Positions 200-50,348 of a stretch of 51,200 bases of DNA are shown in pieces. The translations under genes and the position numbers were made by a program. Source of the DNA: Clostridia bacterium (GTDB taxonomy: Bacteria > Bacillota > Clostridia > Christensenellales > DTU072); contig JAQVTZ010000001.1 in the NCBI GenBank assembly GCA_028699795.1, positions 1 through 51,200 of the forward strand, in the 5' to 3' direction. Numbering within the stretch: position 1 is the first letter of the stretch; the number at the start of each line of letters is the position of its first letter. The notes below the pieces were generated by a model. The model saw only the letters and a list, made by a program, of their open reading frames with translations, made no database searches and was not told the DNA's origin.

Positions 200-228
200 T
201 TGACAACGTATGTACACTATGCTATAAT
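200..228 (+). promoter_or_regulatory. Sigma-A type promoter, ATGTAC-spacer family
   Basis: TTGACA, 17-nt spacer (acgtATGTACactatgc), TATAAT. About 50 bp upstream of ATG 278. Confidence 0.75.
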
Positions 229-277
229 TGTGTCATAGGAAATAATTATTTGGAAGCATTAAAAAGGGGGCAATTAT

Positions 278-622
278 ATGAAATTAACGACAGCGGTTCA
301 AGTCCTTAAAAAAGAACTCGCCGAGCTCGCGGCGGTCGCGGATAAAGAAAAGGTTCTTGCTATCATGATATTTGACGAAATGGCAGAATACGATGTTTCT
401 ATGATTAACAAAATTTCTCAGAGGTCTCGGCTTATTCTCGGTCTGGGCTATTCGGAGTTTTTTGCAGATACAACGTCGGACAACGAGCTTTGCGCGGCAT
501 CTGAAAAGAGAGATATTCTTTTGAAGCATCTCGGCGTTGACGCGACAAGGTTGAACGAGGAGATGCGGTCAACATATGGCAAGAGGGGTTATGGTTTGGC
601 TGAGCGCGATTTAGACTGTTAG
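278..622 (+). CDS. Hypothetical protein (114 aa)
   Basis: ORF track. GGGGG RBS 7 nt before the ATG. First gene after repeat A and its promoter. No motif recognised. Confidence 0.65.
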   Translation: MKLTTAVQVLKKELAELAAVADKEKVLAIMIFDEMAEYDVSMINKISQRSRLILGLGYSEFFADTTSDNELCAASEKRDILLKHLGVDATRLNEEMRSTYGKRGYGLAERDLDC

Positions 623-744
623 AATGCGGAGGGCTTGATTGTGTTGAACAACAGGTATTATAAGTGGGGCGGCGGGCATGAATTTTTTTAAGCTTGATGA
701 CGGAGACGATTTTTCGAGGAAGAAAAATATATAAATTCATGTAC

Positions 745-773
745 TTGACTTTATATGTACAGAGTGTTATAAT
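745..773 (+). promoter_or_regulatory. Sigma-A type promoter, ATGTAC-spacer family, with conserved leader 774-830
   Basis: TTGACT, 17 nt (ttatATGTACagagtgt), TATAAT with TGn extended -10. Leader AGTGTAAAGAGA-hairpin GAGGAA/TTCCTC-GAAAGCGAGG before ATG 831. Confidence 0.8.
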
Positions 774-830
774 AATAGTGTAAAGAGAGGAAGCGAGGGT
801 TTCCTCCACATCAAGAAAGCGAGGCACACC

Positions 831-1211
831 ATGAGCGAGGTTTTGATAAAAGAATACGAGTTTTCAGCGACGGCAGATTGTGACATTTACTGCGGTAACT
901 GGAGCGACGTCAAAAAAGACATTCTTGTTTATGCGGCGGAACGCATTGCCTGTTATCACGGCGACATTTTTATCACTTTTGGTCAGGTTGCCGATAGGCT
1001 GTCTGACAAAAACCTTCTTTCCCAGAATTTGAACATACGGGTTTATATTCACGGGTACGGTGCTGATTATGTAGATATAGATAACCCTTGCTATGACACT
1101 GAAAATAGGGATATGTTGAAAAGGGCTGTTGAACACAAGGGCGTGGTTATGTCGATAAAAAGAGCGGCGGGGGGCAACACGGTTGCCGTGCGCATCGAGG
1201 AGGCTTTATGA
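831..1211 (+). CDS. Hypothetical protein (126 aa)
   Basis: ORF track. Conserved leader/SD upstream. Its stop overlaps the next start (ATGA at 1208). No motif recognised. Confidence 0.7.
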   Translation: MSEVLIKEYEFSATADCDIYCGNWSDVKKDILVYAAERIACYHGDIFITFGQVADRLSDKNLLSQNLNIRVYIHGYGADYVDIDNPCYDTENRDMLKRAVEHKGVVMSIKRAAGGNTVAVRIEEAL

Positions 1212-1786
1212 TTCCCAATGTATATCTAACGTTTATGAGGGATGCGGAGTATGTCTCTGTTTCAATGGACTCTCACATCGAAATTCGAGATTACGTCTCC
1301 GTTGTTGATTGGCTTACGTTTGAGCCGATGCGGGATGGTGAGTTTCCAAAGCGGGTGTGCCGCATTTTGGGAGACGGGCTGTATGGCGGCGTTTATGGGG
1401 TGCAGGAGTCTCTGACTACTCGTGCGGCTGTTTTTGCGTGGCGGATGAAATTCTGGGCGAATGCAAAGATTTATGTGCGCGAAGGATTGGAAGCCCCGTG
1501 GGTCGACATGAACGTGATTCCGTGGGAAGAAGGGGAAGCTCGAGAGGTTGAGACCGAGCAACTCCATATGACAGAACAAGAGGAGGTGCTCGTGGCGTCT
1601 CATGCCGAAAATCTTTGTGATGCCGATGGTGTTATCAAAGATTCTGTTGAATGGGTTGAGGCGGTTCTTGTTTGGGCGAACGTTCATGAGGCGGGCAGGG
1701 CTAAAAAGAAAGAGGAGCTCGAGCGGCTTTGGGGAAACGACGTCAAGTGCGGCATTATAATTTCCCAGAAAAAGGAGACAGAGTGA
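1208..1786 (+). CDS. Hypothetical protein (192 aa)
   Basis: ATGA start/stop overlap with the upstream gene. No motif recognised. Confidence 0.65.
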   Translation: MIPNVYLTFMRDAEYVSVSMDSHIEIRDYVSVVDWLTFEPMRDGEFPKRVCRILGDGLYGGVYGVQESLTTRAAVFAWRMKFWANAKIYVREGLEAPWVDMNVIPWEEGEAREVETEQLHMTEQEEVLVASHAENLCDADGVIKDSVEWVEAVLVWANVHEAGRAKKKEELERLWGNDVKCGIIISQKKETE

Positions 1787-2307
1787 GTCCTGCGCAGAAC
1801 GTTAAAACGGAAAGAGGGATTACAAAACGCGACTTCGTTACCTTTGTTCTTTTTCTTTTTGGGGTTGTGGGAATATTCATATTTCGTGCAACGGTGCTCG
1901 ATAGGGTTATGGTCGATGGAGACAGCATGTACCCTACTCTTTCTAATTCTGACGTTTTGTGGGCGACTCCCTTTTCCTCCGAGTCGGTTGAACGAGGAGA
2001 TATTGTTGTTGTTATGATGAACGGAAAAAAATGTATTAAGCGGGTTGTGGCGTTGCCTCTTGATTCTGTTGTTATTACAAACGGAACGGTTTATGTAAAT
2101 GGAACGGCGGAGGGGAGCGACGGCGGGGCGGGAACAGAATGTTCTCTTGTTCTTTCCGAAAACGAATATTATGTGATTGGAGATAACCGTAGCGTTAGTG
2201 GCGATTCTCGCGTTTTTGGTTCGTTGTCAAAAGATGATATGAAGGGTATTGTTTGGATTCGCATTTATCCTTTTGGGGATGCGGGGGAGGTAAGGGATGA
2301 ATATTAA
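1783..2307 (+). CDS. Signal peptidase I (S26 family, TraF/LepB-like)
   Basis: Motifs GDSMYPTL, GDIVVV, KRVVALPLD and GDNRSVSGDSR, plus an N-terminal TM segment. Start set to the in-frame GTG 1783, 5 nt after AAAGGAG. The track start 1729 overlaps the upstream gene. Confidence 0.85.
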   Translation: MSPAQNVKTERGITKRDFVTFVLFLFGVVGIFIFRATVLDRVMVDGDSMYPTLSNSDVLWATPFSSESVERGDIVVVMMNGKKCIKRVVALPLDSVVITNGTVYVNGTAEGSDGGAGTECSLVLSENEYYVIGDNRSVSGDSRVFGSLSKDDMKGIVWIRIYPFGDAGEVRDEY

Positions 2308-2617
2308 AGTTTTGCTTTACAAGAAGGGTTTAATCGACCCCGAGACAGTTGAGACAGATGCGACTATGTTTAACGAGTTGGTGGGCGGCGCTCCTCGCAT
2401 GAAAGAGTTGGTAGGCGGGCTGTGCTTTATATGGAGTGATTCTCCGAGAGAGAAGAGTGTTCGCAATGTGTTTTTGCCCGTTTACAATAATTCTAGGGTT
2501 GAGGTTGTTCCAATGCGAGTGGAGAGCAATTACTTGATTTGTGGTTTCTGTGATGGGGTGTATTGTGATTATCCCGAGGATATGAAGGGGGAGCTCAAGT
2601 CTATCTTTGGTTTTTAA
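2297..2617 (+). CDS. Hypothetical protein (106 aa), possibly DUF3846-like
   Basis: GGGAGG RBS. The N-terminal IKVLLY..DPETVE..NELVGG pattern resembles, from memory and unverified, a family common on Firmicute conjugative elements. Confidence 0.6.
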   Translation: MNIKVLLYKKGLIDPETVETDATMFNELVGGAPRMKELVGGLCFIWSDSPREKSVRNVFLPVYNNSRVEVVPMRVESNYLICGFCDGVYCDYPEDMKGELKSIFGF

Positions 2618-2629
2618 GGGGTGTTTTTA

Positions 2630-2803
2630 ATGCAACGTCGATGTATTGGATATGGTATTTTTAGGGGCGTGTGTCCGAATGCGGTTGACCCTCGCCGCGG
2701 AACTTTGTTTTGCGGTCGTTGTGAAAGCCTTCGTGATGCTCAGGGTTCGGGGGGCGGCATCGGAGACAAGTTTCTTGAAATACGACATGACGATGAAAGG
2801 TAG
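2630..2803 (+). CDS. Small Cys-containing protein (57 aa), possible zinc ribbon
   Basis: ATG 2630 is in frame within track ORF 2621-2803. AAGGGG lies 8 nt upstream. Four Cys, including CGRC. Weak support. Confidence 0.4.
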   Translation: MQRRCIGYGIFRGVCPNAVDPRRGTLFCGRCESLRDAQGSGGGIGDKFLEIRHDDER

Positions 2804-2811
2804 AATTATTT

Positions 2812-3162
2812 ATGTTTGATTTTTTTCGGGATATGTTTGACGAGGTAAGGGGTGTTGACCCTAATAAGGTTCGCCTCGAAAGAGCGAACAAGAAGGAAGC
2901 GGAAAAAGAAGCGCGGTATATCTTTACTAAAAAAATGAAGGTTGCTGTTTACGGTTTTGGAATGCTCTATATCGTTATGTCGTGTTTTGTTTTATTTGGC
3001 GGCGGCGTTTCTTTATGGAGAGGCGCATTACAGGTTTGGATGTCTGTTCTCGCGGGAGTGGCTATGCTCAGTTTGGTTACAAAAACAAAGCAGGGTGAAG
3101 TCGCTTCGGCAATTACTATTTTTGTTTTTGTTTGTTTTCTTTTGGGCTCGATAATGATTTGA
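2812..3162 (+). CDS. Membrane protein (116 aa)
   Basis: Charged N-terminus followed by 2-3 hydrophobic helices (VAVYGFGMLYIVMSCFVLFGG, VWMSVLAGVAMLSLV, AITIFVFVCFLLGSIMI). Confidence 0.6.
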   Translation: MFDFFRDMFDEVRGVDPNKVRLERANKKEAEKEARYIFTKKMKVAVYGFGMLYIVMSCFVLFGGGVSLWRGALQVWMSVLAGVAMLSLVTKTKQGEVASAITIFVFVCFLLGSIMI

Positions 3163-3173
3163 GGGGTATATAA

Positions 3174-3626
3174 ATGCGTGTTTATATTTCACCAGAAGAC
3201 ATGAAGGTTCTGCGTCGGATTGCTAATGACAACGAGGTTTCTGTTTCTGAGCTCGGGGTTTTTCTTGCGCGTAGCCTTTCGTCGGATAAAGGAATTGCTG
3301 TTCGTTTATCTGACGATGAATATGGTTATATTTATTCGAAGTCGATGGAAACGGGCATGTCGATGTCGCGGTTTTGTTCTCTTGCTTGTCGCTCATTTCT
3401 TAATGTTTCGGAAGGCGTTAAGATTGAAAGTTTATATTGCGACAATCATTCTTCGTCTTTGCGCAAAAAGCGTATTGAGGTTAAGCTTATAAGTAATAAC
3501 GATATGTTTCGGGTAGAGTCTTTGTCGTATCAATACGGAATTAAGGTCTCGACTCTAATTAGATACTGTTCGCTACGATTTGATGGTTCGCATTTTGATG
3601 CGGGAAAGGACTATCGTGATGGATGA
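3174..3626 (+). CDS. Protein with three tandem ribbon-helix-helix-like repeats (150 aa)
   Basis: GAGGGG RBS. Three repeats of a beta-strand/helix pattern: RVYISPED..VSVSELGVFLARS, AVRLSDDE..MSMSRFCSLACRS, EVKLISNN..IKVSTLIRYCSL. Confidence 0.6.
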   Translation: MRVYISPEDMKVLRRIANDNEVSVSELGVFLARSLSSDKGIAVRLSDDEYGYIYSKSMETGMSMSRFCSLACRSFLNVSEGVKIESLYCDNHSSSLRKKRIEVKLISNNDMFRVESLSYQYGIKVSTLIRYCSLRFDGSHFDAGKDYRDG

Positions 3627-4014
3627 CGAGAAATACATTAACTGTCGCATTTATACAGAAGAAGAGGCGAAGAATCATCCGCTCATTATTGCAAGAGACC
3701 GATTGATTAAAAAGCGCTCAGAACGCAAGGAATCGTTCTTGCGGTTTTTGCGTTTTGTTGTCTGCTCTCCGATATCCATAGCTTTCAAAGGGTTGGCGTT
3801 TTTTACCAAGTTGGCTAGTGTTCTTCTTTCTATTGGATTGCCCTATGGTGTTTATTGCGCATATCGGGTTGTTCGCGACATGATGAATGGCGTTGATTTA
3901 TTTGACGCTTCTCATTTCAAAGGGCTTCTCATTTTTATGGCATTTCCTTTTTTGGGGTTTGCTCTTTCATATTTGTTTACTGCAATATCGTCCAAAGCAG
4001 AGGATATATTGTGA
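3619..4014 (+). CDS. Membrane protein (131 aa)
   Basis: ATG 3619 is in frame in track ORF 3580-4014 and overlaps the upstream stop (3624-3626). Several hydrophobic helices in the C-terminal two thirds. Confidence 0.55.
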   Translation: MDDEKYINCRIYTEEEAKNHPLIIARDRLIKKRSERKESFLRFLRFVVCSPISIAFKGLAFFTKLASVLLSIGLPYGVYCAYRVVRDMMNGVDLFDASHFKGLLIFMAFPFLGFALSYLFTAISSKAEDIL

Positions 4015-4086
4015 TTATTTATTTTTACGAGTAGTTGAAAATATTCAAAATTTAGCGCATTATAAATATGCCCTTAACGTTATATA

Positions 4087-4163
4087 GCAAGCATAGGTAA
4101 TTGTGCGCACACAATGACCGCTTGCTAGCCACATGACATAACGTCATGTTGGGGCAAAGCCCC
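4087..4163. other. Candidate oriT (nested inverted repeats upstream of mobC-relaxase)
   Basis: GCAAGC(4087-4092)/GCTTGC(4120-4125) encloses ATTGTG-CGCA-CACAAT (4100-4115). ACATGAC-ataac-GTCATGT at 4131-4149. GGGGC-aaa-GCCCC at 4151-4163. The nick site was not identified. Confidence 0.55.
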
Positions 4164-4250
4164 CTAAAACCCCCTTTCGCATCATCGTCGCCGCGATGTC
4201 TGCCTGTCAATATTCGACCATGCGAACATTAACCATCAATACGATACTCG

Positions 4251-4265
4251 TCCTCACCGTGAGGA
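4251..4265. promoter_or_regulatory. 15-bp palindrome TCCTCAC-C-GTGAGGA (site 2)
   Basis: Perfect copy between the oriT candidate and the small ORF/mobC. Outside any long repeat. Confidence 0.8.
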
Positions 4266-4280
4266 TTTGGGAGAATGATA

Positions 4281-4454
4281 ATGAAGTTGCCAATTTACTA
4301 TTTGATTGTTTATTCGGTAATCCTCGCATTGTTTTTCGCGAGCATTCTTGTAAATAAAAAGGTTGGTTCTAATGTTCGAATGAAAATATTATATAAAATC
4401 GTCAACGTAATTTTGTGGGCGACGATGTATGTTGTCGTGTTGCTGTTTGCATAA
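4281..4454 (+). CDS. Small two-helix membrane protein (57 aa, below ORF-track cutoff)
   Basis: My own translation: MKLPIYYLIVYSVILALFFASILVNKKVGSNVRMKILYKIVNVILWATMYVVVLLFA. GGGAGA lies upstream. Stop TAA at 4452-4454. Confidence 0.45.
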   Translation: MKLPIYYLIVYSVILALFFASILVNKKVGSNVRMKILYKIVNVILWATMYVVVLLFA

Positions 4455-4464
4455 GGAGTTGAAC

Positions 4465-7357: not shown

Positions 7358-7648
7358 TTATTCTTCATATATCTCTTTTACAAAGAGGGTGTGCATTGCT
7401 TTTCTGGGAAAGGTTTGGGTCGGCATGGTTCGGATTATTGCCCCGCAGTCCTCGAGGCGGCGCAATGCTTGTGTAACGGTTCGCGATGGCATTCTGACAG
7501 CTTTGGCAACGTCATTAACGGACATGTGCAATATTGCTTCGTCGCTCTTGCCTTTAAGCGCAATATCAAGCGCCGCCGCGTAGAAACGCTTATGCGCAAA
7601 CGTTAGCGTTGTTCCGCTTGCTTCTGCGAGCTTTTGAAGCCGCATCAT
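7358..7648 (-). CDS. Winged-helix DNA-binding protein (97 aa)
   Basis: Start moved to ATG 7648 behind GAGGGA; the track start 7738 overlaps the upstream gene. HTH-like MSVNDVAKAVRMPSRTVTQALRRLEDCGAI. Confidence 0.65.
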   Translation of the reverse strand: MMRLQKLAEASGTTLTFAHKRFYAAALDIALKGKSDEAILHMSVNDVAKAVRMPSRTVTQALRRLEDCGAIIRTMPTQTFPRKAMHTLFVKEIYEE

Positions 7649-7685
7649 AAGGATTCCCTCGGGCGCTTTTACATTTTTGCGCACG

Positions 7686-8138
7686 TCATCCCTCTCCTTC
7701 GCTGTCGTCGTACATCGTGTCAAATGGAAGCTCGTCATCTTCTATGTCTGAATTGAAGTTTTTCATATCGTCGGACGACTCGTTAAAGTCGGAAATAACA
7801 ATGTAAACGGTTGTGTACGTTTTCCCATTGCTTGTTATTTCTTCCTTTTCAGTCCATCCCTTCACGATGTCGATATATGTTCCGTTGCGTAGCGCCTTTG
7901 CGGGCTCAAATGCCTTCCCTACGAAGCGCCCTTCCCAATGCGTGTAGACGCGCTCGGGTACGGGCTTCCCTTGTTTATCGAGAACGACCTCACCTGTTTC
8001 CTTGTCGTGTTTGGGGCGTCCTGTTCTTTTGGATGTTCGCAAGTCGGCAAATAGCATTTTTTCGCTGACCGAATATCGCATGGTTACGTTGCTTACCGCA
8101 ACATATCGACTCGGGTTGTTACCGATGTTAAAGCTCAT
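7686..8138 (-). CDS. SSB-like protein (non-canonical OB-fold candidate with acidic DDELPF tail)
   Basis: AAAGGAGA RBS. The acidic C-terminal tail contains DDELPF (compare the SSB tip DDDIPF). Paralogous to 50408-50770 (shared W..RFVG.A.E.AK.L and Y..I.I.DF blocks). Confidence 0.65.
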   Translation of the reverse strand: MSFNIGNNPSRYVAVSNVTMRYSVSEKMLFADLRTSKRTGRPKHDKETGEVVLDKQGKPVPERVYTHWEGRFVGKAFEPAKALRNGTYIDIVKGWTEKEEITSNGKTYTTVYIVISDFNESSDDMKNFNSDIEDDELPFDTMYDDSEGEG

Positions 8139-8178: not shown

Positions 8179-8207
8179 ATATTAGCACAGCGTACTTATT
8201 TTGTCAA
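8179..8207 (-). promoter_or_regulatory. Sigma-A type promoter (same family, minus strand) for the SSB-like/wHTH/HU operon
   Basis: Minus strand reads TTGACA, 17 nt (aaataAGTACgctgtgc), TAATAT. Confidence 0.7.
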
Positions 8208-16156: not shown

Positions 16157-18409
16157 TCAGAGCATCGCACATCCAACGTTGCAGTAGGTTTTTCCGTCTT
16201 TTTCCTTTTTTACAAACGAAAATTGCCCCTTATATGTTTTTCCGTTTGCGGCTGTACATCGTTTTACAAGAATTTTATTGGCAATAAAAGATAGCGCTTC
16301 GGCTTCTGTCAGAGGTTTTTTTGTTCTCTGAATAACGGTTTTGTCGTCCAGAGAGAGTTTCCATCCGCAAGAACGTTGAGAACAATAATACAATTTTTGC
16401 GTTCTTCTTCCCTCTCTTTTCGTGTACAGATATACAGGTTCTCCGCACCACGGACAGTTCCCGCATGTCTTTTTTTCGGTCTGAAAGGAAACGCCCGTCT
16501 CAACGGTTTTAACTTCGTTGATTTTTTCGCGGATGAACGCAATAAAGTCGCGCATAAATTCTTCTTCGGTTGTTTTGTGTGCAACAATTTCGGCTATTTT
16601 TGTTTCCCAATCAGCGGTTATTTTGGGGCTATATATTTCGGGTGGAAGAATTCTTATGACGGACAGTCCCTTTGCGGTCGGGATAAGATAGTTTGTTTTA
16701 CCCTTCTTGAGCGCCTCTATAACGCCCGTATCAAACAGTTTTTTTATGATTTCCGCTCTCGTTGCTTGTGTTCCTATTCCCTTTCCTTTCAGAATAGCGC
16801 CGTTTTCTATGCTCGCGCCCGCGTTTTCCATTGCCGTCAGCAAGGTTGCTTCCGTGTGAAGTTTGGGAGGAGAGGTTTTTTTAGAAATGGAATCGCACTT
16901 TGTAACGTCAACGGTCTGCCCCTTTTGAAGCAGGGGTATTTCTTGTGTGTCTTCTTTTTCCTCTGCATCGTCTTGCTCGTTGTCGTCTTTACCAAAGAGC
17001 TTTTCTTGTATTTCTTTCCATCCTTTTTCAATCGGGCGTATTCCGCCAGACTGAAATTTCATGCCGTTTTTCATCTGAATAACGGCTTTGGTCTGTTCAT
17101 ATTTATAGGGCGTCGACAAGGAGACAATAAGACGGCACAAAACGAGGTTTAGGACGTTTCGGAGGGCTTCGGTCGTAACGCCGTCTTTGGAGGAAGCGCT
17201 GATACTTTTTATGTCGAAGCCCTTGATGTTTTCGGTTGGGATTAACGCATGATGGTCAGTAACTTTTTTATCGTCACAGATGATGTTGTCGATGTTGAGT
17301 CCGATTTCGATGACTCTTTGCGCGCTCGCTCGATAGGGTTCAATATTGCTCAGCTCGATGACCCGCGTTTTTAACAGCGGCACGATGTCGCTTGTTATAT
17401 AGCGGCTATCTGTTCGAGGATAACTGAGCACCTTGTATCTTTCATACAATATTTGGGCGCATGTGAGCGTTTCTGCGGCGGTATACCCGTATCTTCTGTT
17501 GGCGTCTCTTTGAAGTTCTGTTATGTCGTAAAGTTGCGGGCGATTTGTCGCCTTTTTAACCACCTCATAAGAGATAACTGTTCCTTCTTTGCCTTGCTCG
17601 ACTTCTTTTGCCAGTTTCTCTGCTACGGCGCTATTAAGCAAGCGCCCTTCCTCGTCTTTGTCAGAGGCTCTTATCCGTCCTTCGTCGTCTTTTTTCCATA
17701 CGGCTCGAAAGGGCGCGCCGTTACTCAGGGACGCCTCTATTACGAAATAATCCGTGACATGAAAGTTTTCAACGGCAATGTATCTCTTTACGACAAATCC
17801 GAGCGTTGGCGATTGAACGCGCCCGACATTGATTCCTTTTTTGTACTTGATGGTCTCGGCGCGTGACATGCTCATTCCCATTATCCAGTCGGCTTTTTTC
17901 TTGCAAAATTCGCCGCGAATAACAGGCATAAATTCTTCCTCGGTACGCAAATTGTTCATTGCGTGTCGAATTGCCTCATCTGTCATAGACGTTGCGCAAA
18001 ACCGCTTCACGGGCTTTTTGCATCCCGCCTTTTGACGAATAAACCATTGCAGAATATGTCCCTCTGCGCCCATGTCACCACAGTCGATGATATATTCTAC
18101 GTCTTCTCGGTGCATAAGTGTTTTTACGACTTCGTATTGGTCTTTGGTGCTTTCGATAACAACCAGTTTGAATTTATCGGGGACGAGCGGAAGTTCGGCA
18201 TACGCCTCTTGCGCTCTTTCCCCAAACATTTCTTTTTGGGATACGTACCCGTATGCCTCGGGCTCTGCAAGCGTGATTAAGTGTCCTACCGCCCACGTCA
18301 CGATATATCCGTTGCCCTCAAGATAACCTTGCCCTTTTTTACCATCCGCCTTGATTACCCTCGCGATTTCTCTTGCAACGCTAGGCTTTTCGGCAATGCA
18401 TAGAATCAT
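16157..18409 (-). CDS. topB: DNA topoisomerase III (type IA) with C-terminal zinc-ribbon region
   Basis: N-terminal Toprim MILCIAEKPSVAREIA and DCGDMGAEGH. Active-site region SYPRTDSRYI. C-terminal CGNCPWCGE..CSQRSCGW. ATGA overlap with the upstream GntR gene. Confidence 0.92.
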   Translation of the reverse strand: MILCIAEKPSVAREIARVIKADGKKGQGYLEGNGYIVTWAVGHLITLAEPEAYGYVSQKEMFGERAQEAYAELPLVPDKFKLVVIESTKDQYEVVKTLMHREDVEYIIDCGDMGAEGHILQWFIRQKAGCKKPVKRFCATSMTDEAIRHAMNNLRTEEEFMPVIRGEFCKKKADWIMGMSMSRAETIKYKKGINVGRVQSPTLGFVVKRYIAVENFHVTDYFVIEASLSNGAPFRAVWKKDDEGRIRASDKDEEGRLLNSAVAEKLAKEVEQGKEGTVISYEVVKKATNRPQLYDITELQRDANRRYGYTAAETLTCAQILYERYKVLSYPRTDSRYITSDIVPLLKTRVIELSNIEPYRASAQRVIEIGLNIDNIICDDKKVTDHHALIPTENIKGFDIKSISASSKDGVTTEALRNVLNLVLCRLIVSLSTPYKYEQTKAVIQMKNGMKFQSGGIRPIEKGWKEIQEKLFGKDDNEQDDAEEKEDTQEIPLLQKGQTVDVTKCDSISKKTSPPKLHTEATLLTAMENAGASIENGAILKGKGIGTQATRAEIIKKLFDTGVIEALKKGKTNYLIPTAKGLSVIRILPPEIYSPKITADWETKIAEIVAHKTTEEEFMRDFIAFIREKINEVKTVETGVSFQTEKKTCGNCPWCGEPVYLYTKREGRRTQKLYYCSQRSCGWKLSLDDKTVIQRTKKPLTEAEALSFIANKILVKRCTAANGKTYKGQFSFVKKEKDGKTYCNVGCAML

Positions 18410-18816
18410 TTTGTTCTCCTTGTTGCGGGCGCGTCCTCACGGTGAGGACGACGCGGCGGAGGAGCGAGATTTTCGATTTGTTTAATAATTTCTTCTTTGC
18501 TGACCCCTAACTTATTGCCATAATCGATGGCAGAGACTATTTTATCGTCTAAAATGAGGCGGAGTTTGTCTCGAATCTTTTCGCGCACATACGGCTTAAC
18601 AAAGCATCCGACGCCCATTTTTTTTACGATAATGTCTTCTTCGTGCAGTTTGTCGATTATCTTTTGGGCAGTCGTGTTTCCAATCCCGTATATCTCGGTC
18701 ATTTCAACGATTGTGGGAAGGCGTTCCCCCGCCGCATAAATGCCGTTCATTATTTTGATTTCGAGGTCGGTTTTTACGGCTTCCCACAAATTTATGTTGT
18801 TTCTGGGTACGTTCAT
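18406..18816 (-). CDS. GntR-family (short, YhcF-like) transcriptional regulator
   Basis: wHTH pattern AGERLPTIVEMTEIYGIGNTTAQKIIDKLHEEDIIVKKMGVGCFV. AAAGGAG RBS. The C-terminal tail PPPRRPHREDAP is encoded by palindrome site 4. Confidence 0.8.
   Translation of the reverse strand: MNVPRNNINLWEAVKTDLEIKIMNGIYAAGERLPTIVEMTEIYGIGNTTAQKIIDKLHEEDIIVKKMGVGCFVKPYVREKIRDKLRLILDDKIVSAIDYGNKLGVSKEEIIKQIENLAPPPRRPHREDAPATRRTK
18434..18448. promoter_or_regulatory. 15-bp palindrome TCCTCAC-G-GTGAGGA (site 4)
   Basis: Perfect copy with flanking CG..CG that extends the arms to 9 bp. Lies in the 3' end of the GntR gene, 25 bp upstream of the topB start. Confidence 0.75.
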
Positions 18817-32277: not shown

Positions 32278-32306
32278 TTGACATCATATGTACATTGTGT
32301 TATAAT
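32278..32306 (+). promoter_or_regulatory. Sigma-A type promoter, ATGTAC-spacer family
   Basis: TTGACA, 17 nt (tcatATGTACattgtgt), TATAAT. Divergent from the transfer-operon promoter. Confidence 0.8.
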
Positions 32307-33367: not shown

Positions 33368-33396
33368 TTGACATTATATGTACGGCGTGTTATAAT
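33368..33396 (+). promoter_or_regulatory. Sigma-A type promoter, ATGTAC-spacer family, with conserved leader
   Basis: TTGACA, 17 nt (ttatATGTACggcgtgt), TATAAT. The leader starts AGAGTAAAGAGA. Confidence 0.8.
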
Positions 33397-34851: not shown

Positions 34852-34880
34852 TTGACAGATTATGTACATCGTGTTATATT
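34852..34880 (+). promoter_or_regulatory. Sigma-A type promoter, ATGTAC-spacer family
   Basis: TTGACA, 17 nt (gattATGTACatcgtgt), TATATT. Confidence 0.75.
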
Positions 34881-34917
34881 CATATTATATACAAATGTCT
34901 TATGAAGGAGGTTTAAT

Positions 34918-35274
34918 ATGACGAGTTATTTTGCATTGCGGGTAAGCCCGCGGCTTAAAGATGATTTTTATGCGTTTTGCAAGCGCAAGGGCGTGTCGGC
35001 GGGTACGGCGGTTAAAATGTTTGTAAAAAGCTTCCTTTCCGTCGGAGCTGACAAGTTGGGTTGGTCTCTTCTCAACAGCGATAGCGTTGTTTACGGAGAA
35101 GGGGATAATCCTGCGCGGGTTTCTATTCTTATGGACGCTGAGTTGCGGAGGGCGTTTTCGGATGCTTGTGCGGAGATTGGCGTTCCAATGAGCGTCGTCG
35201 TGAGGTCGTTCATGTTTTTTGTTGTTAAGAACGACTCGTTCCCGTTTCAGGATGGGAAGGCGGGTTGTCCATGA
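34918..35274 (+). CDS. Tandem RelB/DinJ-like ribbon-helix-helix protein (118 aa)
   Basis: Two DinJ-like units: FALRVSPRLKDDFYAFCKRKGVSAGTAVKMFVKSFL and RVSILMDAELRRAFSDACAEIGVPMSVVVRSFMFFVVKNDSFPF. GAAGGAGG RBS. Confidence 0.7.
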   Translation: MTSYFALRVSPRLKDDFYAFCKRKGVSAGTAVKMFVKSFLSVGADKLGWSLLNSDSVVYGEGDNPARVSILMDAELRRAFSDACAEIGVPMSVVVRSFMFFVVKNDSFPFQDGKAGCP

Positions 35275-36842: not shown

Positions 36843-36849
36843 CGGTTTT

Positions 36850-39149: not shown

Positions 39150-39254
39150 GTCGTTTCTCCTTTTAAGGCGTATGTTTTTTCCACGAGCCCTTATATCCAT
39201 TATCATACCCCATCTCTGCATACATTTCTCAAAAAATGCGTGTGCCTCCCTGTT

Positions 39255-39731: not shown

Positions 39732-39760
39732 TTGACAACGTATGTACTACGTGTTACAAT
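39732..39760 (+). promoter_or_regulatory. Sigma-A type promoter, ATGTAC-spacer family, with conserved leader 39761-39811
   Basis: TTGACA, 17 nt (acgtATGTACtacgtgt), TACAAT. Leader AGTGTAAAGAAATCAA-GCC(gtaa)GGC-ACGTGAAAGCGAGGA. Confidence 0.8.
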
Positions 39761-43924: not shown

Positions 43925-43953
43925 TTGACACGTTATGTACATTATGTTAATAT
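43925..43953 (+). promoter_or_regulatory. Sigma-A type promoter, ATGTAC-spacer family, with conserved leader (parAB)
   Basis: TTGACA, 17 nt (cgttATGTACattatgt), TAATAT. Leader AGAGTAAAGAAGA-GCTGTTT(taga)AACAGC-AGAAAGCGAGGA. Confidence 0.8.
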
Positions 43954-45974: not shown

Positions 45975-46496
45975 ATGAAAAGAATACTGTTTTTAGTTGG
46001 ATTGTGTCTTTTGCTTTCGGGGTGCGTGACGGAGAATTTAGTGAGGTCAGCGGCGGCGACGTCCCGTGAGGAAGCTCCCGTTTTATGTGGTCGCTATGAA
46101 GTCGTTCGTGTTTCGGATGGCGACACGATAGTTGTACAGGTTGACGGAGAAGAAGTATCCGTGCGGCTAATCGGGGTTGATGCCCCCGAAAGCGTTCATT
46201 TTGATGATTCGAAAAACACGCCCGAGGGATTGGTCGCTTCACAATGGACATGCGATTTGTTGGATGATGCTTTTGTTTATTTGGAGTACGATGTCGAGAA
46301 AACGGACAAATATGGGAGAACGCTTGCTTACGTTTATTTAGACGACGGGGTTACGATGGTCGAGCGCAGTATGTTGGCAGACGGTATGGCGCAAGTTATG
46401 ACCATTCAGCCCAATAGCAGGTACGCAGACGAGTTTGTTGAAATTCAAAAAAACGCCCGCGAGAATGAGGCGGGTTTTTGGGGAGATTCTAAATGA
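45975..46496 (+). CDS. Thermonuclease (staphylococcal-nuclease fold) lipoprotein
   Basis: Lipobox LLLSGC. SDGDTIVV..VRLIGVDAPE..DKYGRTLAYVY. Confidence 0.88.
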   Translation: MKRILFLVGLCLLLSGCVTENLVRSAAATSREEAPVLCGRYEVVRVSDGDTIVVQVDGEEVSVRLIGVDAPESVHFDDSKNTPEGLVASQWTCDLLDDAFVYLEYDVEKTDKYGRTLAYVYLDDGVTMVERSMLADGMAQVMTIQPNSRYADEFVEIQKNARENEAGFWGDSK

Positions 46497-47026
46497 ATAA
46501 TGAAAGCAACGGGATTGGAAACAATTATGATGACCTACTCAAAGAGCGCTTGACGATGGTTAGAGACTGGAAACTATTAAACGGCGAGACGTTGGGGTAC
46601 AGTCGTTTGGGGCTGAAATATTTTGGGTCAGAGGATTTGGTTTTGCAAGCAGGACGTCGTTTTTATCCGCGTCCATTGCCCGCAGAAACAAAGAAAATGA
46701 AGGGGCGAGAGTGTTACAAAAACGCACTACTTTACGCGAGCAAAAACAACCTGCTCTACTGCGAAGGTTTCGCTTATGCTCGCGAAACGGGGTCGGCGCT
46801 TGAAATTCCTCATGCGTGGGCGGTTGATAAAAAAGGATATGTAATTGACCCTACGTGGGGAGAGGGTCTTGCTTATTTCGGGATTGCTTTTTCGCTTGAC
46901 TACGTGCTTAAAATTACGTTAAGAGATGAACACTACGGGATGATTCCCGACGTGCCTAGAGGACGGCACAACCCTTTTCTAAACGGATATCCGTCGGGTG
47001 CTATTTTTACGGCTTTTGAGGAATAA
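46493..47026 (+). CDS. Putative transglutaminase/papain-like cysteine peptidase-fold protein (177 aa)
   Basis: ATGA overlap with the nuclease gene. GRECYKNA (Cys), PHAWAVD (His) and YVIDPTW (Asp) have transglutaminase-core-like order and spacing. Confidence 0.6.
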   Translation: MNNESNGIGNNYDDLLKERLTMVRDWKLLNGETLGYSRLGLKYFGSEDLVLQAGRRFYPRPLPAETKKMKGRECYKNALLYASKNNLLYCEGFAYARETGSALEIPHAWAVDKKGYVIDPTWGEGLAYFGIAFSLDYVLKITLRDEHYGMIPDVPRGRHNPFLNGYPSGAIFTAFEE

Positions 47027-47061
47027 TTATTGAATCCTCGTTACTTTGCTATCGATTCTGA

Positions 47062-47086
47062 CAGCGGGCTCTCCCCGCTGTTTTTT
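47062..47086 (+). terminator. Intrinsic terminator (opening part of repeat D)
   Basis: CAGCGGG-ctctc-CCCGCTG followed by T6. Confidence 0.85.
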
Positions 47087-47473
47087 ATGCCCGTTTTCCC
47101 GCCCCGCGTCGTTCCTCCTCCGCCAGACCCGAAAGCCGTTATACGGGCAAGGGGGCGCAGAGCACCCCATGAAAGAAAGCTCAACGGCGTTGCCGTTGAG
47201 CTCGTGGCACGCTTGCCTTCTTCGAAGGGATTTGCCTTCGGACGGACATCGGAACGCACAAGAGCTTTCGCGACATAAACCGCTACGCTTTTTATTTCAC
47301 GGTCTCTTGCACTTTCCTTTCATGCGGGCTTTTTCGGCTTTGCCGAAACCGACGCTGATTTTCCAAAGCAGGGTTCGGTTTCGCCTTATTAAGCCTATCC
47401 CGCATTGTCCGCCTCGGCGTTCTTTCGCGGGGCTACGCGCCCCGCTATCCCCCGACCTCGCCAACGCTGATTT

Positions 47474-47488
47474 TCCTCACCGTGAGGA
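47474..47488. promoter_or_regulatory. 15-bp palindrome TCCTCAC-C-GTGAGGA (site 10)
   Basis: Perfect copy in repeat D, about 55 bp upstream of the -35 at 47542. Confidence 0.8.
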
Positions 47489-47541
47489 CGGGTTTTCGCG
47501 TTTCTTTTTTCGGGGAATGGTTTGTTTTTTGTCGAATGCGC

Positions 47542-47570
47542 TTGACAACGTATGTACAGAGTGTTATAAT
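47542..47570 (+). promoter_or_regulatory. Sigma-A type promoter, ATGTAC-spacer family, with short conserved leader
   Basis: TTGACA, 17 nt (acgtATGTACagagtgt), TATAAT. Leader AGAGTAAAGAAGTGAAAGCGGGGG. Confidence 0.8.
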
Positions 47571-47605: not shown

Positions 47606-48526
47606 ATGGGGTTGGACGCGGTTCGAAATCTTCCGATTACGGATTATGCGCAAAAGTGCGGATATACTCTTGTTCACAAGGGAGCGAGATATGTTTCCCT
47701 TAAAGAACATGATTCCGTGATGATTGATGTTCAGTTAAATCGTTTTTGGAGAAATTCGGTTTGCGGTAATGGGTCTTCTCGCGGGCATGGGTCAATAATC
47801 GATTTTGCAATGGAGTTTTGCGGGTATGACCTCTCTCAAGCCATTTCTGAGCTTTCAAGGACATATGGGGTTGATTCTGAGCGCCCCGCCCCCGTGGTTG
47901 TATCGAAGCCCGTTTTGGTGTCGCCAAAGCGCGAGGTCGGAGACATTAAGTTTCCGAGGCGGGCTAAAAAGAATGTGGCGGCGTTTCAATACCTTCGAGG
48001 GCGCGGGGTTTCCGATTCCGTTATCCGTTATTTTGTGGGTTCGGACATGCTTTATCAGGACGAAAACGATAATTGCGTGTTTGTGTCTCCGAGCAGACGG
48101 TTTGCGTGTTTGCGCGGCACGTCCGAAAAGCGGTTTATGCTTGATATTGTCGGTTGTGATTATGGCGAGTGTTTTTTCTTGAAGGGCAATCCGAATCCGT
48201 CAGGGTTGCGGCTTTACGTTACAGAGTCAGTCATTGACCTTATGTCTCTTGTGTCGCACATGGAGGCGACCGACAAAGCGGTTTGGAACTACTCGTATTT
48301 GGCTTTGTCGGGTACGAATAAAATCGATTGTTTGTTCCGTTGGGTTGACGAGTTAAGCGCTCAAGCGCCCCTCACCGTTTATTTGGCGCTTGATAATGAC
48401 CCCGCGGGAATTGCGGCTTGCGAGGCGGCGGAGACAAGGCTTGATGAACGCGAGTCCGTTTGTTGTGAGCGGATGCTTCCCCCGAGCGGCAAAGACTGGA
48501 ACGAACATATAAAAAGCCATTTATAG
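47606..48526 (+). CDS. Toprim-domain protein (DUF3991/primase-like N-terminus + Toprim)
   Basis: Start at ATG 47606, in frame within the track ORF. C-terminal LYVTESVIDLMSL .. VYLALDNDPAGIAACE (Toprim E and DxD). Confidence 0.75.
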   Translation: MGLDAVRNLPITDYAQKCGYTLVHKGARYVSLKEHDSVMIDVQLNRFWRNSVCGNGSSRGHGSIIDFAMEFCGYDLSQAISELSRTYGVDSERPAPVVVSKPVLVSPKREVGDIKFPRRAKKNVAAFQYLRGRGVSDSVIRYFVGSDMLYQDENDNCVFVSPSRRFACLRGTSEKRFMLDIVGCDYGECFFLKGNPNPSGLRLYVTESVIDLMSLVSHMEATDKAVWNYSYLALSGTNKIDCLFRWVDELSAQAPLTVYLALDNDPAGIAACEAAETRLDERESVCCERMLPPSGKDWNEHIKSHL

Positions 48527-48536: not shown

Positions 48537-48565
48537 TTGACATCATATGTACGGAGTGTTATAAT
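48537..48565 (+). promoter_or_regulatory. Sigma-A type promoter, ATGTAC-spacer family, with conserved leader
   Basis: TTGACA, 17 nt (tcatATGTACggagtgt), TATAAT. Leader AGGGTAAAGAGAAGTC-GCC(gcaa)GGC-ATGGAGAAAGCAGAGG. Confidence 0.8.
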
Positions 48566-48617: not shown

Positions 48618-48896
48618 ATGGAAGCTAAGAAATTGAATGGAAATGAGTTGGCGAAAGCGGTTGCGCTTTCCGTTAATTCGTATAATTTTGACACAAATGG
48701 TTTTGTCGAGACAATGAGCAGAGAGCACCGCACCCTTCAACAGAGTTTGACGAGATTGTGCATGGCATGGCTCTATAACTGTTCGCGTGACGATTACGAG
48801 GTTGATGGTCGCAATCAGGCTTCTCATGACATCGCGAAGTTTATATACGATAAAGCCGCGGAAGAAGACAAGTCTCTTTGGCTTCCGCTTGTATAG
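48618..48896 (+). CDS. Hypothetical protein (92 aa)
   Basis: ORF track, with the conserved leader/SD upstream. No motif recognised. Confidence 0.65.
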   Translation: MEAKKLNGNELAKAVALSVNSYNFDTNGFVETMSREHRTLQQSLTRLCMAWLYNCSRDDYEVDGRNQASHDIAKFIYDKAAEEDKSLWLPLV

Positions 48897-48906
48897 GGGG
48901 TCGGAT

Positions 48907-49197
48907 ATGGAAAAGAACAATGGTTATGCCGATACCGTCCTTATTGCCAACATTGTCGACCGTGCTTACGATTTGTTTCGGAAGTTGGACATGAGCGATT
49001 TTTCCAAGCGAGAAAAGATTTTTTTGATGATGGATATTGACCATGCTCACAAGCAAATTGAGCTCGACCTTGTTGCGTTTTATGAGGCGGACGATGATAA
49101 TTTCATGCACGATATTATGGGCATCGTTGGTCACATGAATCGGAGCACGAAACAATTTGAGGGTGACTTTGTTCCGCGCTTTGCGCTTCAGGGATAG
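48907..49197 (+). CDS. Hypothetical protein (96 aa)
   Basis: ATG 48907 behind GGGGG, in frame within track ORF 48787-49197, whose 5' part overlaps the previous gene. No motif recognised. Confidence 0.6.
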   Translation: MEKNNGYADTVLIANIVDRAYDLFRKLDMSDFSKREKIFLMMDIDHAHKQIELDLVAFYEADDDNFMHDIMGIVGHMNRSTKQFEGDFVPRFALQG

Positions 49198-49214
49198 GCG
49201 CGAGGAGGGTTTTC

Positions 49215-49622
49215 ATGTGCGTTGATTATATGTTGTATGTCTACCTTCGCACGGAACGCGACTTGTGGACGGTTGGGTTTTATCGGAACGACACGTTTGT
49301 TTCTGAGAGCGACCACTCTTCCCCCGATGCGGCGGCGGAGCGTGTTGCATGGCTTAACGGAGCTCGTTTCCGCGCAGAGGATTATGCGGCAAAGGATAAA
49401 TCCATAAGCGCTGATGTTGTGCCGCTCGGACTCGCCGAAGCCGCTATCGCTCTGAGAGAGGGTAAGAAAATCCGCATGGTGAATTGGAAAAAGACGGACT
49501 ATATTCGATATGACCGTTCTCGCAAGTGTTTTGTGGACGCGGGCGGAAACGCGCTTCCTCTTTTTGTTGTTAATGCGAGCGCCGTCGAAAACGACCGAGC
49601 ATTTATTCTTTGCGACGAATAG
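49215..49622 (+). CDS. Hypothetical two-domain protein (135 aa); C-terminal half possibly DUF2829-like
   Basis: GAGGAGGG RBS. The C-terminal LAEAAIALREGKKIRMVNWKKTDYIRYD weakly resembles the DUF2829 opening (..A..AL..GKK..R.GW..). From memory, unverified. Confidence 0.6.
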   Translation: MCVDYMLYVYLRTERDLWTVGFYRNDTFVSESDHSSPDAAAERVAWLNGARFRAEDYAAKDKSISADVVPLGLAEAAIALREGKKIRMVNWKKTDYIRYDRSRKCFVDAGGNALPLFVVNASAVENDRAFILCDE

Positions 49623-49637
49623 CATGCCGATGTGGAA

Positions 49638-49784
49638 ATGCTGAGCGCGCGAGTGACCGATGCCAAACACAGGCTTATTGAGGTTGCGGACGGAATAGAA
49701 AATAGAGGGTACGTTCGGGAGGCTAAATCGCTTAACCGCCTTTGCGGGTTAATTGAGATTTGGCAACAAAAGGCGAGGTTCTGA
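49638..49784 (+). CDS. Possible small ORF (48 aa, below track cutoff)
   Basis: My own translation: MLSARVTDAKHRLIEVADGIENRGYVREAKSLNRLCGLIEIWQQKARF. No convincing RBS. Fills the gap before terminator 49807. Confidence 0.3.
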   Translation: MLSARVTDAKHRLIEVADGIENRGYVREAKSLNRLCGLIEIWQQKARF

Positions 49785-49806
49785 TTTATTTTGATTCCGT
49801 TTCCGA

Positions 49807-49831
49807 CAGCGGGTTCTCCCCGCTGTTTTTT
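49807..49831 (+). terminator. Intrinsic terminator (opening part of repeat E)
   Basis: CAGCGGG-ttctc-CCCGCTG followed by T6. Confidence 0.85.
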
Positions 49832-50218
49832 ATGCCCGTTTTCCCACCCCGCGTCGTACCTCCTCCGCCAGACCCGAAAGCCGTTATACGGGCAAGGGGG
49901 CGCAGAGCACCCCATGAAATAAAGAACAACGGCGTTGCCGTTGAGCCCGTGGCACTCTTGCCTTCTTCGAAGGGTTTTGCCTTCGGACGGACATCGGAAC
50001 GCACAAGAGCTTTCGCGACATAAACCGCTACGCTTTTTATTTCACGGTCTCTTGCACTTTCCTTTCATGCGGGCGTTATCGGCTTCGCCGAAACCGACGC
50101 TGATTTTTCAAATCAGGGTTCGGTTTCGCCTTATTAAGCCTATCCCGCATTGTCCGCCTCGGCGTTCTTTCGCGGGGCTACGCGCCCCGCTATCCCCCGA
50201 CCTCGCCAACGCTGATTT

Positions 50219-50233
50219 TCCTCACCGTGAGGA
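50219..50233. promoter_or_regulatory. 15-bp palindrome TCCTCAC-C-GTGAGGA (site 11)
   Basis: Perfect copy in repeat E, about 90 bp upstream of the -35 at 50320. Confidence 0.8.
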
Positions 50234-50319
50234 CGATTTTGCGTTTTTCTTTTTTTGGGGGGGGTAGTTTGTTTGGTGTCCACGTCGTTTACAAAGGTCG
50301 CAGTTCGCGTAAATGGTGC

Positions 50320-50348
50320 TTGACAACGTATGTACTACGTGTTACAAT
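50320..50348 (+). promoter_or_regulatory. Sigma-A type promoter, ATGTAC-spacer family, with conserved leader 50349-50407
   Basis: TTGACA, 17 nt (acgtATGTACtacgtgt), TACAAT. The leader matches the one at 774-830 except for the last bases before the ATG. Confidence 0.8.

Follow-up and report, generated by a model that had tools for sequence, protein, structure and literature searches.

A conserved heptamer in the spacers of near-consensus promoters on a Clostridia plasmid is a probable operator of a plasmid-encoded DNA-binding protein

Introduction

In the Inc18 plasmids (pSM19035), the omega repressor, a ribbon-helix-helix (RHH) protein that reads 7-bp heptads, controls the promoters for copy number, partition, and stability. 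The omega gene is linked to the partition genes, omega itself is the centromere-binding protein, and it needs at least two WATCACW heptads in an array. Here, we analyze a family of eleven promoters that carry a heptamer in their spacers, on a 51,200-nt stretch of DNA from a Clostridia bacterium (contig JAQVTZ010000001.1 of assembly GCA_028699795.1, positions 1 to 51,200), referred to below as the window. The exact overlap of its ends over 127 nt (1-127 and 51074-51200) shows the window to be circular, with a length of about 51,073 bp, and thus to represent a whole plasmid.

Among the closest described arrangements is the Reg576/EGeRS2 system of Bacillus pumilus p576, in which strong sigma-A promoters, with a 17-bp spacer and a TGn motif, stand before operons outside the conjugation operon (PMC6294495, PMC8708921). 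A conserved heptamer, in some cases inside the spacer, marks each of these promoters; they are repressed by an RHH protein that also regulates its own gene, and a transient de-repression after transfer has been proposed as the logic (PMC6294495, PMC8708921). The heptamer, TTATCCC, forms pairs of direct repeats, in most cases immediately 5' of the -35 box, and two Reg576 dimers bind cooperatively (PMC6294495, PMC8708921). The EGeRS1 element of pLS20 has folding energies of about -110 (DNA) and -220 (RNA) kcal/mol and is without a constitutive sigma-A promoter (PMC8708921). On the IncP-1 plasmid RK2, the small operator-binding protein KorA silences many strong promoters from a fixed position, together with KorB, a ParB-family protein with about a dozen palindromic sites scattered on the plasmid (PMC11790492). 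Finally, the leading region of the IncN plasmid pKM101 (CUP/ArdK) is summarized in PMC6289460, citing Delver & Belogurov 1997, as having repeated upstream modules with promoters and repressor sites before operons, and these repeats are said there to promote mosaic rearrangement. In the literature that we searched, the named relative of the window, pOBV01, appears only in a genome announcement, and no description of the promoters analyzed here was found.

Results

Eleven near-consensus promoters carry one heptamer at a fixed spacer position

The family consists of ten promoters on the plus strand and a weaker one on the minus strand. All eleven have the features of sigma-A promoters: they score 10-12 out of 12 against TTGACA/TATAAT and have a 17-nt spacer and a TGn extended -10 element. 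The plus-strand consensus is cTTGACA-N3-TATGTAC-N3/4-(g)TGn-TATAAT, with the hexamers exactly 17 nt apart. The members, with the position of the heptamer (the block) and the genes that they drive, are as follows.

200..228, plus strand: family promoter, 12/12, TGn; block TATGTAC at 209-215; drives 278-622, no assigned function
745..773, plus strand: family promoter, -35 box TTGACT, 11/12; block at 754-760; drives the operon 831-4014, which includes the signal peptidase gene
738-744: extra CATGTAC abutting the -35 box of the promoter at 745
32278..32306, plus strand: family promoter, 12/12; block at 32287-32293; drives 32333-33043, divergent from the transfer operon
33368..33396, plus strand: family promoter, 12/12; block at 33377-33383; drives 33446-34837, including the resolvase gene
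34852..34880, plus strand: family promoter, -10 box TATATT; block at 34861-34867; drives the candidate regulator gene and three more
39732..39760, plus strand: family promoter, -10 box TACAAT; block at 39741-39747; drives the DUF932-like gene (39812-40852) and TraX
43925..43953, plus strand: family promoter, -10 box TAATAT; block at 43934-43940; drives parA, parB, the nuclease gene, and 46493-47026
47542..47570, plus strand: family promoter, 12/12; block at 47551-47557; drives the Toprim/DUF3991 primase gene (47606-48526)
48537..48565, plus strand: family promoter, 12/12; block at 48546-48552; drives 48618-49622, including the DUF6874 gene
50320..50348, plus strand: family promoter, -10 box TACAAT; block at 50329-50335; drives 50408-50770
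8179..8207, minus strand: weaker family promoter, -10 box TAATAT, 10/12; degenerate block TAAGTAC; drives 8138-7058

The minus-strand operon (8138-7058) holds a gene without assigned function, a winged helix-turn-helix (wHTH) gene, and a TTRAP-like gene; the HU-like gene at 7030-6800 is probably driven by the same promoter. The orthologue of this promoter in pOBV01 likewise has a degenerate block (ACTGTAC).

These positions, the exact 17-nt spacing, and the degenerate minus-strand copy agree with a preliminary description of this DNA. That description reported TGn in most of the promoters and an invariant ATGTAC block. We find TGn in all eleven, and the invariance holds in the ten plus-strand copies; the invariant unit is, however, a 7-mer, TATGTAC, at spacer positions 4-10 (about -26 to -20). 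Specifically, the seven block columns show no substitution over the ten plus-strand copies, whereas the adjacent three plus four spacer columns vary: the three bases 5' of the block read ACG, TTA, TCA, GAT, and CGT, and those 3' of it ACTA, AGAG, ATTG, GGCG, ATCG, TACG, ATTA, and GGAG. TATGTAC occurs 12 times in the window versus 2.48 expected, a count reached in 0 of 100 shuffles, and ten of these occurrences are the family spacers, at positions 4-10. The pattern ATGTAC-N7-TATAAT has 13 matches versus 2.9 expected. From 32 to 51.2 kb, every plus-strand site that scores at least 11/12 belongs to the family, with the exception of the rep-region promoter at 42010. As had also been claimed, the block is missing from the near-consensus promoters of the rep region (41893, 42010, and 42198 on the minus strand) and from the candidate transfer promoter (32206, minus strand).

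The copies are not all independent. An upstream flank is common to the promoters at 200 and 47542, those at 39732 and 50320 do not differ between -60 and +14, with identity over about 125 nt, and those at 745 and 50320 have a leader in common. Seven of the ten promoters have GTAAAGAG from the predicted +1 (positions +1 to +8, e.g., 780-787), followed by a hairpin and then by a GAAAGCGAGG Shine-Dalgarno sequence.

The promoters at 200, 32278, and 34852 are without the GTAAAGAG leader and have in common a TGTCAT / TGTCTTAT motif shortly 3' of the -10 box (229-260, 32307-32325, and 34881-34905). At the promoter at 32278 this motif reads TATGTCAT, which is near to the block sequence. It could be a second, downstream operator, or it could be due to chance.

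Among the driven genes, Pfam and PHROGs confirm ParA/ParB, the Toprim primase, and the resolvase; the labels "SSB-like" and "anti-restriction-type" found no confirmation in either database. The nuclease and signal-peptidase genes are named after homologues in relatives (PF00565 in locus L153 and Peptidase_S26 in locus L271) rather than from domain scans of the window's own proteins, and most genes of the regulon are without annotation after the Pfam and PHROGs scans.

The block is not a general requirement of the promoter

To see what the promoter looks like irrespective of the block, metagenomes were scanned with the block-free pattern TTGACA-N14-TGTTAnAAT-N6-GTAAAGA. The scan returned at least 120 gut and rumen loci (L030-L149) with 124 cassettes, so the promoter-plus-leader design is common in gut and rumen mobile elements. 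TATGTAC stands in one of the 124 cassettes, which belongs to a member of the plasmid family (L052), and two more have xxxGTAC. The remaining cassettes have unrelated spacers, many with perfect palindromes of their own, e.g., CAGTGTAATATTACACTG and CATAGTAGGCATACTATG. It looks like a generic promoter chassis that takes different operators in different elements. When one genome per GTDB species was scanned with a block-containing pattern, 25 singletons were found versus a rough chance estimate, based on how many bases the pattern fixes, of about 17; none of the 25 had the leader or multiple copies, and the scan serves only as a baseline. Since the block is absent from 123 of 124 cassettes and the GTDB singletons stand at about the chance level, it is not a general requirement of the polymerase.

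Two described regulatory words were also searched for in the window. The LexA (SOS) box GAAC-N4-GTTC has 0 matches; at the family promoters the left half is variable (CATC, CTTT, CAGA, CACG) and the right half is GTAC. The Reg576 word TTATCCC occurs 9 times versus 5.0 expected and at none of the family promoters. Because it is at chance level and not at the promoters, the window is not a member of the Reg576 system.

The heptamer persists between plasmids with diverged proteins

We found 243 homologues of Rep, at 36-49% identity, one of which is the replication protein of pOBV01 from Oscillibacter valericigenes Sjm18-20 (AP012045.1; 60,586 bp, typed MOBP and MPF_T). This plasmid has 11 promoters of the form cacTTGACAAYRTATGTACAnnnTGCTATAAT, on one strand only, which precede parA, the primase gene, the DUF932 gene, the gene for an RHH protein, the signal-peptidase operon, and several unassigned genes. 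In the distant relative L052, Rep, ParA, ParB, primase, TraX, signal peptidase, MobC, and the RHH protein are 26-45% identical to those of the window, and five promoters have the exact block at the same position, in addition to weaker or degenerate sites. Eight further family members were compared through DNA fetched around rep. The words at the block position are as follows.

TATGTAC: window (10), pOBV01 (11), L052 (5), L153 (11), L270 (6), L271 (5)
TATA[A/T/C]AC: L154
(T/A)ATATAC: L269
TATGTAT: L155 and L272
TATTGAC, with an 18-nt spacer, plus a second class, GTGGGGTGC: L152
TAGGTAC, plus a conserved GCAATATATATC upstream of the -35 box: L068

In total, the exact heptamer is present in at least 48 promoters (39 distinct 29-mers) over six plasmids, with a weak bias at the neighboring positions. 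Rep, ParA, ParB, primase, and other proteins of the TATGTAC relatives are 35-50% identical to those of the window. The parA promoters of 11 plasmids are orthologous, and the parts that they have in common are the -35 box, the block, the -10 box, and the leader only; the other flanks are unalignable.

The preliminary description left two readings of the repeated block, a shared operator or recent duplication of the whole set. These comparative data strongly favor an operator-like element. Cassette duplication and recombination also occur in the family, and promoters are more alike within one plasmid than between plasmids, but these processes do not explain the block. Loss of the block from orthologous promoters on related elements, an outcome that had been set as a check, did not occur: the parA, primase, DUF932, and RHH promoters of pOBV01, L052, L153, L270, and L271 keep TATGTAC at the same position.

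In a relative that is about 97-98% identical (L026), the orthologue of the promoter at 33368 (positions 73-101 of L026) reads TGCGTAC, within a segment that is only 83% identical and apparently recombined. Because of this word in a recombined segment, we regard the cassettes as exchanged and the GTAC core as their most persistent part.

A tandem ribbon-helix-helix protein is the foremost candidate regulator

The main candidates are as follows.

34918..35274, plus strand: candidate repressor, single-chain tandem RHH protein of 118 aa; RelB/DinJ-like sequence, TraY-like fold
7358..7738, minus strand: alternative candidate, weak wHTH protein of 126 aa; conserved in pOBV01
18406..18816, minus strand: alternative candidate, short GntR-family protein of 136 aa; conserved in pOBV01, with a GntR gene also in L269

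The product of 34918-35274, one of four proteins described earlier as helix-turn-helix (HTH) candidates, is in fact a tandem RHH protein, and it is also the best candidate for the regulator. It has a Pfam RelB match (1.1e-8), and its AF2 model shows two beta-alpha-alpha units in one chain (pLDDT 81.9, pTM 0.77). The top PDB fold matches of the model are chains E, F, and G of the F-plasmid relaxosome (about 105-120 residues, probability 1.0, TM 0.57-0.65), which are not named in the match table and which we take to be TraY, a tandem RHH protein; the tandem-RHH regulator AvtR is also among the best matches. A profile of the tandem-RHH family run against the PDB matches DinJ (6e-11) and RelB, with a match to ParG in the second repeat. 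The RHH proteins form a small, coherent family of 72 clusters at 50% identity, as judged from an exhaustive search of protein sequences alone. Word-indexed homologue searches found very few proteins.

The genomic setting of the RHH gene is constant. In 11 of the 11 relatives examined, a tandem-RHH homologue lies shortly downstream of parAB. The gene is not paired with a conserved toxin partner. In the window and in pOBV01, the RHH gene is the first gene after an exact-block promoter; the promoter of the gene in L052, L270, and L271 is also of the family type, but its block has degenerated to TATGCCT or TATGTCT. A family-type promoter of its own precedes the gene in each of the six plasmids that have the canonical block. 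As judged from these sequences, the arrangement is compatible with autoregulation of the RHH gene through a weaker site.

A comparison of the RHH proteins with the blocks is suggestive only. All six TATGTAC plasmids have the same putative outward-facing beta-strand residues, Y..R in the first repeat and R.S in the second. In the two plasmids with A in place of G4 of the block, L154 and L269, the Arg and Ser of the second repeat are replaced (H.I in L154 and I.G in L269), and L068 and one of the two paralogues of L152 (L152b) also differ at putative beta-strand positions. L152 has two RHH paralogues (15726-16121 and 16714-17052) and two promoter classes, a natural setting in which to test which regulator pairs with which operator. 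Its promoters, at 861, 12377, 13065, and at 16272, 17219, 18281, are of the classes TATTGAC (18-nt spacer) and GTGGGGTGC (17-nt spacer). Two adjacent RHH paralogues are also present in L155 and L272. The comparison covered the flanks fetched around rep; the genes for the wHTH protein, the GntR protein, ParB, the HU-like protein, and 35834-36382 lie outside them.

A palindrome and a structured repeat lie upstream of several family promoters

Two further repeated elements accompany the promoters. The first is a 15-bp palindrome, (T/A)CCTCAC[C/G]GTGAGGA, of which the window has 11 copies versus about 0.2 expected, as estimated from motif length and window size.

133-147, 4252-4266, 14121-14135, 18435-18449, 25843-25857, 30467-30481: palindrome copies
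36829-36843, 39631-39645, 43844-43857, 47475-47489, 50220-50234: palindrome copies
33079-33320 (partial), 39197-39671, 47041-47515, 49786-50260, and 50773-51200 continuing at 128-173: five copies of a repeat of about 475 nt

Five of the palindromes are 66-100 bp upstream of family promoters, and one is in the putative oriT region. The palindrome occurs about 24 times in pOBV01 (L150/L151) and is present in most other loci of the family, including L052 and L152-L155, with none in L068; a scan of IMG/VR gave chance singletons only. It stands in intergenic DNA and also within open reading frames (ORFs), where it is read as LLTVRT or PHRED, in plasmids whose proteins are about 40% identical. By analogy, it is plausible that the palindrome is a parS or KorB-OB-like site for the plasmid ParB.

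The second element, the repeat of about 475 nt, has a terminator hairpin at its start and the palindrome at its end; 25-60 nt separate it from the promoters that follow, those at 200, 33368, 39732, 47542, and 50320. Its G+C content is 54-58% versus 46% for the plasmid, and it is predicted to fold strongly, both as the minus-strand single strand (-114.6 kcal/mol, z -6.9) and as plus-strand RNA (-185.6, z -4.4). In pOBV01, a repeat with four copies has some conserved parts in common with it. Searched with blastn against PLSDB, the repeat matches only pOBV01 and two Corynebacterium plasmids, and Rfam has no match to it at gathering thresholds, with only a spurious lncRNA match. A core of about 55 nt, CTTTCGCGRCATAAACCGCTRCGCTWTTTATTYCACG (47259-47313 in the window, likewise in the other copies; 1910-2006 in L150 and 2501-2555 in L273), is conserved in pOBV01 and in intergenic DNA of pCstat1 and of a C. 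callunae plasmid (Corynebacterium). When copies from the window, pOBV01, and pCstat1 were folded, all three gave the same hairpin, with compensatory changes in the outer stem. This core may be a single-strand initiation or single-stranded-DNA promoter element common across phyla. The whole repeat may, as a conjecture, act as a single-strand initiation element; the role is suggested because complementary-strand synthesis primed at the repeat would run into the adjacent promoter and operon.

One could further picture a modular "establishment cassette" before several operons, made up of the 475-nt element that folds in single-stranded DNA, the palindrome TCCTCACSGTGAGGA as a loading site for ParB, and a consensus promoter locked by the single-chain RHH protein on one heptamer. 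The 475-nt element would then fold in the transferred single strand and prime complementary-strand synthesis into the next operon. We consider this picture rather improbable; if true, a counterpart of the KorA-locked KorB clamps would have evolved independently in Gram-positive bacteria, and it would be linked with the conversion of single-stranded to double-stranded DNA.

The plus-strand family promoters occupy one arc of the plasmid

The other features of the plasmid are as follows.

4429-6677: NikA/MobC-like protein and relaxase
32124 to 8472, minus strand: long transfer operon, with homologues in pOBV01
Inside the transfer operon: polyvalent ArdC-N / M78-peptidase protein
42260-43900: Rep, homologues found
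44007-44822 and 44822-45940, plus strand: parA and parB
47606-48526: Toprim/DUF3991 primase gene
39812-40852: DUF932-like gene, with a weak sub-threshold DUF932 match
37950-39221, minus strand: EcoRI-type adenine methylase gene
Various positions: resolvase, nuclease, signal peptidase, and many small ORFs without assigned function

All plus-strand family promoters are within an arc that runs from 32.3 kb through 51 kb to 4 kb, as far as the intergenic DNA upstream of mobC. The relaxase gene usually enters the recipient last, an arrangement with which the orientation seen here is consistent; if it does so in this plasmid, the arc would, by analogy, be the leading region, with the transferred strand as template. 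The assembly k-mer of the contig was probably 127, and because of the 475-nt repeats the order of the segments between them could be mis-assembled. When 18 kb of the window were compared with PLSDB at near identity, no match was found.

Two NikA/MobC-like proteins, also of the RHH type, are encoded beside the relaxase gene (3174-3626 and 4429-4815). Because the plasmid has these separate relaxosome-accessory candidates, a TraY-like role at oriT is less necessary for 34918-35274.

The EcoRI-type adenine methylase gene (PF13651, 2.7e-145) adjoins a gene for a GmrSD-N/HNH endonuclease (together 36850-39221, minus strand). The pair opposes all neighboring genes, is flanked by two family operons, and has no counterpart in pOBV01; an inserted cargo module is the probable origin.

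Discussion

Altogether, the comparison of sequences indicates that the block is a real, selected regulatory element, and it is probably the operator of a DNA-binding protein encoded by the plasmid. A repressor that occludes RNA polymerase is suggested because the site is short, asymmetric, present in a single copy, and in fixed orientation between two perfect hexamers, and a plasmid-encoded rather than a host factor because the block variants are lineage-specific. Such variants would be expected if a plasmid repressor and its operator co-evolve, but not if the host or its polymerase required the block. With somewhat less assurance, we favor as the overall explanation an operator of one plasmid-encoded repressor, for which the tandem RHH protein is the likeliest choice. 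Given that the block is an operator, we nominate the product of 34918-35274 as its binder only tentatively, at a little under an even chance.

According to this explanation, RNA polymerase would be kept off by a protein sitting on the spacer between the -35 and -10 boxes. A single repressor would hold down the partition, primase, DUF932, and resolvase genes, the signal-peptidase operon beside mobC and the relaxase gene, and many small unassigned genes, with replication control and the transfer operon under separate regulation. The two unequal RHH repeats would form one pseudo-dimeric beta-sheet, which would suit a single, short, asymmetric site of fixed orientation. Because the gene lies behind its own family promoter, the RHH repressor would be autoregulated. 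When the plasmid enters a repressor-free cell and becomes double-stranded, all the promoters would fire and would be shut off as the repressor accumulates; such a burst of expression after transfer, proposed in the preliminary description as zygotic induction with repression in the donor, is plausible. It is from the pattern of sites and genes that we infer binding, repression, the identity of the regulator, and the burst.

Several points weigh against this explanation. For an RHH operator of high affinity, one 7-bp site is short, and both omega and Reg576 require two or more heptamers. GntR operators of the GT..AC type are likewise matched by the TGTACA core, and other conserved DNA-binding proteins are encoded (wHTH 7358-7738, GntR 18406-18816, ParB, the HU-like protein, and 35834-36382). 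TraY, the nearest fold relative, is primarily a relaxosome accessory protein. The covariation of RHH protein and block is imperfect and confounded by phylogeny: the paralogues L152a and L272b keep strand residues of the TATGTAC type, and their plasmids show TATTGAC/TATGGAC and TATGTAT, respectively. Finally, a convincing nick site was not located in 4015-4430, and the status of the promoter arc as a leading region is an analogy.

The strongest competing explanation keeps the operator and changes its reader: the block would be bound by another plasmid protein, such as the wHTH protein (7358-7738), the GntR/YtrA-like protein (18406-18816), or another conserved factor, and the tandem RHH protein would do something else, e.g., act in partition or as a relaxosome accessory. 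Both the wHTH and the GntR proteins are conserved in pOBV01, and the block before the wHTH operon is degenerate both in the window (TAAGTAC) and in pOBV01 (ACTGTAC), as is typical of a repressor's own promoter. Moreover, the TGTACA core is a 6-bp palindrome in most copies, and the best fold match of the RHH protein lies in the F relaxosome. However, the flanks of the block are asymmetric, with an invariant left TA that has no symmetric partner on the right, and no second half-site is present, which argues against a classical HTH dimer; in addition, the RHH protein is the sole regulator found beside parAB in every relative, with its own family promoter. On balance, we consider another binder unlikely.

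An intrinsic promoter element, or a site for a polymerase or regulator of the Oscillospiraceae host, would account for the fixed position and orientation and for the single copy per promoter. Versions of the form CAAC-ATAT-GTAC faintly resemble the Gram-positive SOS box GAAC-N4-GTTC, and a site for the host LexA would give induction when single-stranded DNA enters. Against this stand the 123 of 124 like-designed cassettes that lack the block, a genome scan at chance level, and block variants that are plasmid-specific, which together make an intrinsic or host element quite improbable.

We regard it as very improbable that the block has no function, having hitch-hiked during cassette copying and then been homogenized by gene conversion. 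Some copies do have long identical flanks, promoters within a plasmid are more alike, and the short-read contigs of the close relatives are fragmentary (1.1-5.6 kb); but adjacent spacer positions differ between copies and the block does not, and it survives between plasmids with about 40% identical proteins and unalignable promoter flanks. Hardly credible is a methylation switch, in which GTAC or ATGTAC would be a methyltransferase target that is hemimethylated after transfer and modulates the promoters, as in IS10/Dam: a palindromic GTAC core is typical of methyltransferase sites and the window encodes an EcoRI-type adenine methylase (37950-39221), but pOBV01 has the block and yet no homologue of this enzyme, the conserved polyvalent protein showed no methylase domain, the invariant TAT is not part of any palindrome, and the variants TATATAC and TATTGAC lose GTAC.

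Conjugative plasmids of gut and rumen Clostridia (Oscillospiraceae) are almost uncharacterized; the Rep family has more than 240 metagenome homologues, and pOBV01 is its only named member. Since a 7-bp word marks nearly all non-transfer operons, the regulon can be delimited across the family by a search for the spacer word, and one small protein is named as a candidate to test. Experiments are feasible because pOBV01 resides in a cultured type strain. If a plasmid-encoded RHH repressor does read the block, the strategy of a global repressor plus a burst after entry would extend to a new clade, with an unusually minimal operator architecture of one asymmetric heptamer read by a single-chain RHH protein.

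Comparison with known systems

The window differs from the Reg576 system in that a single TATGTAC stands at one fixed spacer position and the candidate is a single-chain tandem RHH protein; the plasmid family and the host clade are also unrelated. From omega and Inc18 it differs by having one heptamer per promoter and a separate ParB. TraY of the F-like plasmids and AvtR have the fold in common with the candidate, with two RHH repeats per chain, at 11-14% sequence identity. TraY acts at oriT and at the traY promoter, whereas the candidate gene adjoins parAB and not oriT, where two NikA/MobC-like proteins are encoded.

The window resembles the KorA/KorB system in that its 15-bp palindrome stands at 11 places, and at five of these a family promoter follows after 66-100 bp. 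Co-operation of the window ParB with the block-binding protein, as between KorB and KorA, would be pure conjecture drawn from this likeness. KorA differs in being an HTH dimer on a 12-bp palindrome over the -10 box, in Gram-negative hosts (PMC11790492). The CUP/ArdK modules are unrelated to the window in sequence, repressor family, and host. The 475-nt repeat is like EGeRS1 of pLS20 in being multi-copy, G+C-rich, highly structured, and upstream of non-transfer operons; in contrast to EGeRS1, each repeat in the window has a sigma-A promoter after it, and no sequence homology to EGeRS1 appeared in the PLSDB blastn search. The logic of the system is thus known from p576, Inc18, IncP, and IncN, and what is new is one asymmetric heptamer at a fixed spacer position, probably with a single-chain RHH protein as its reader.

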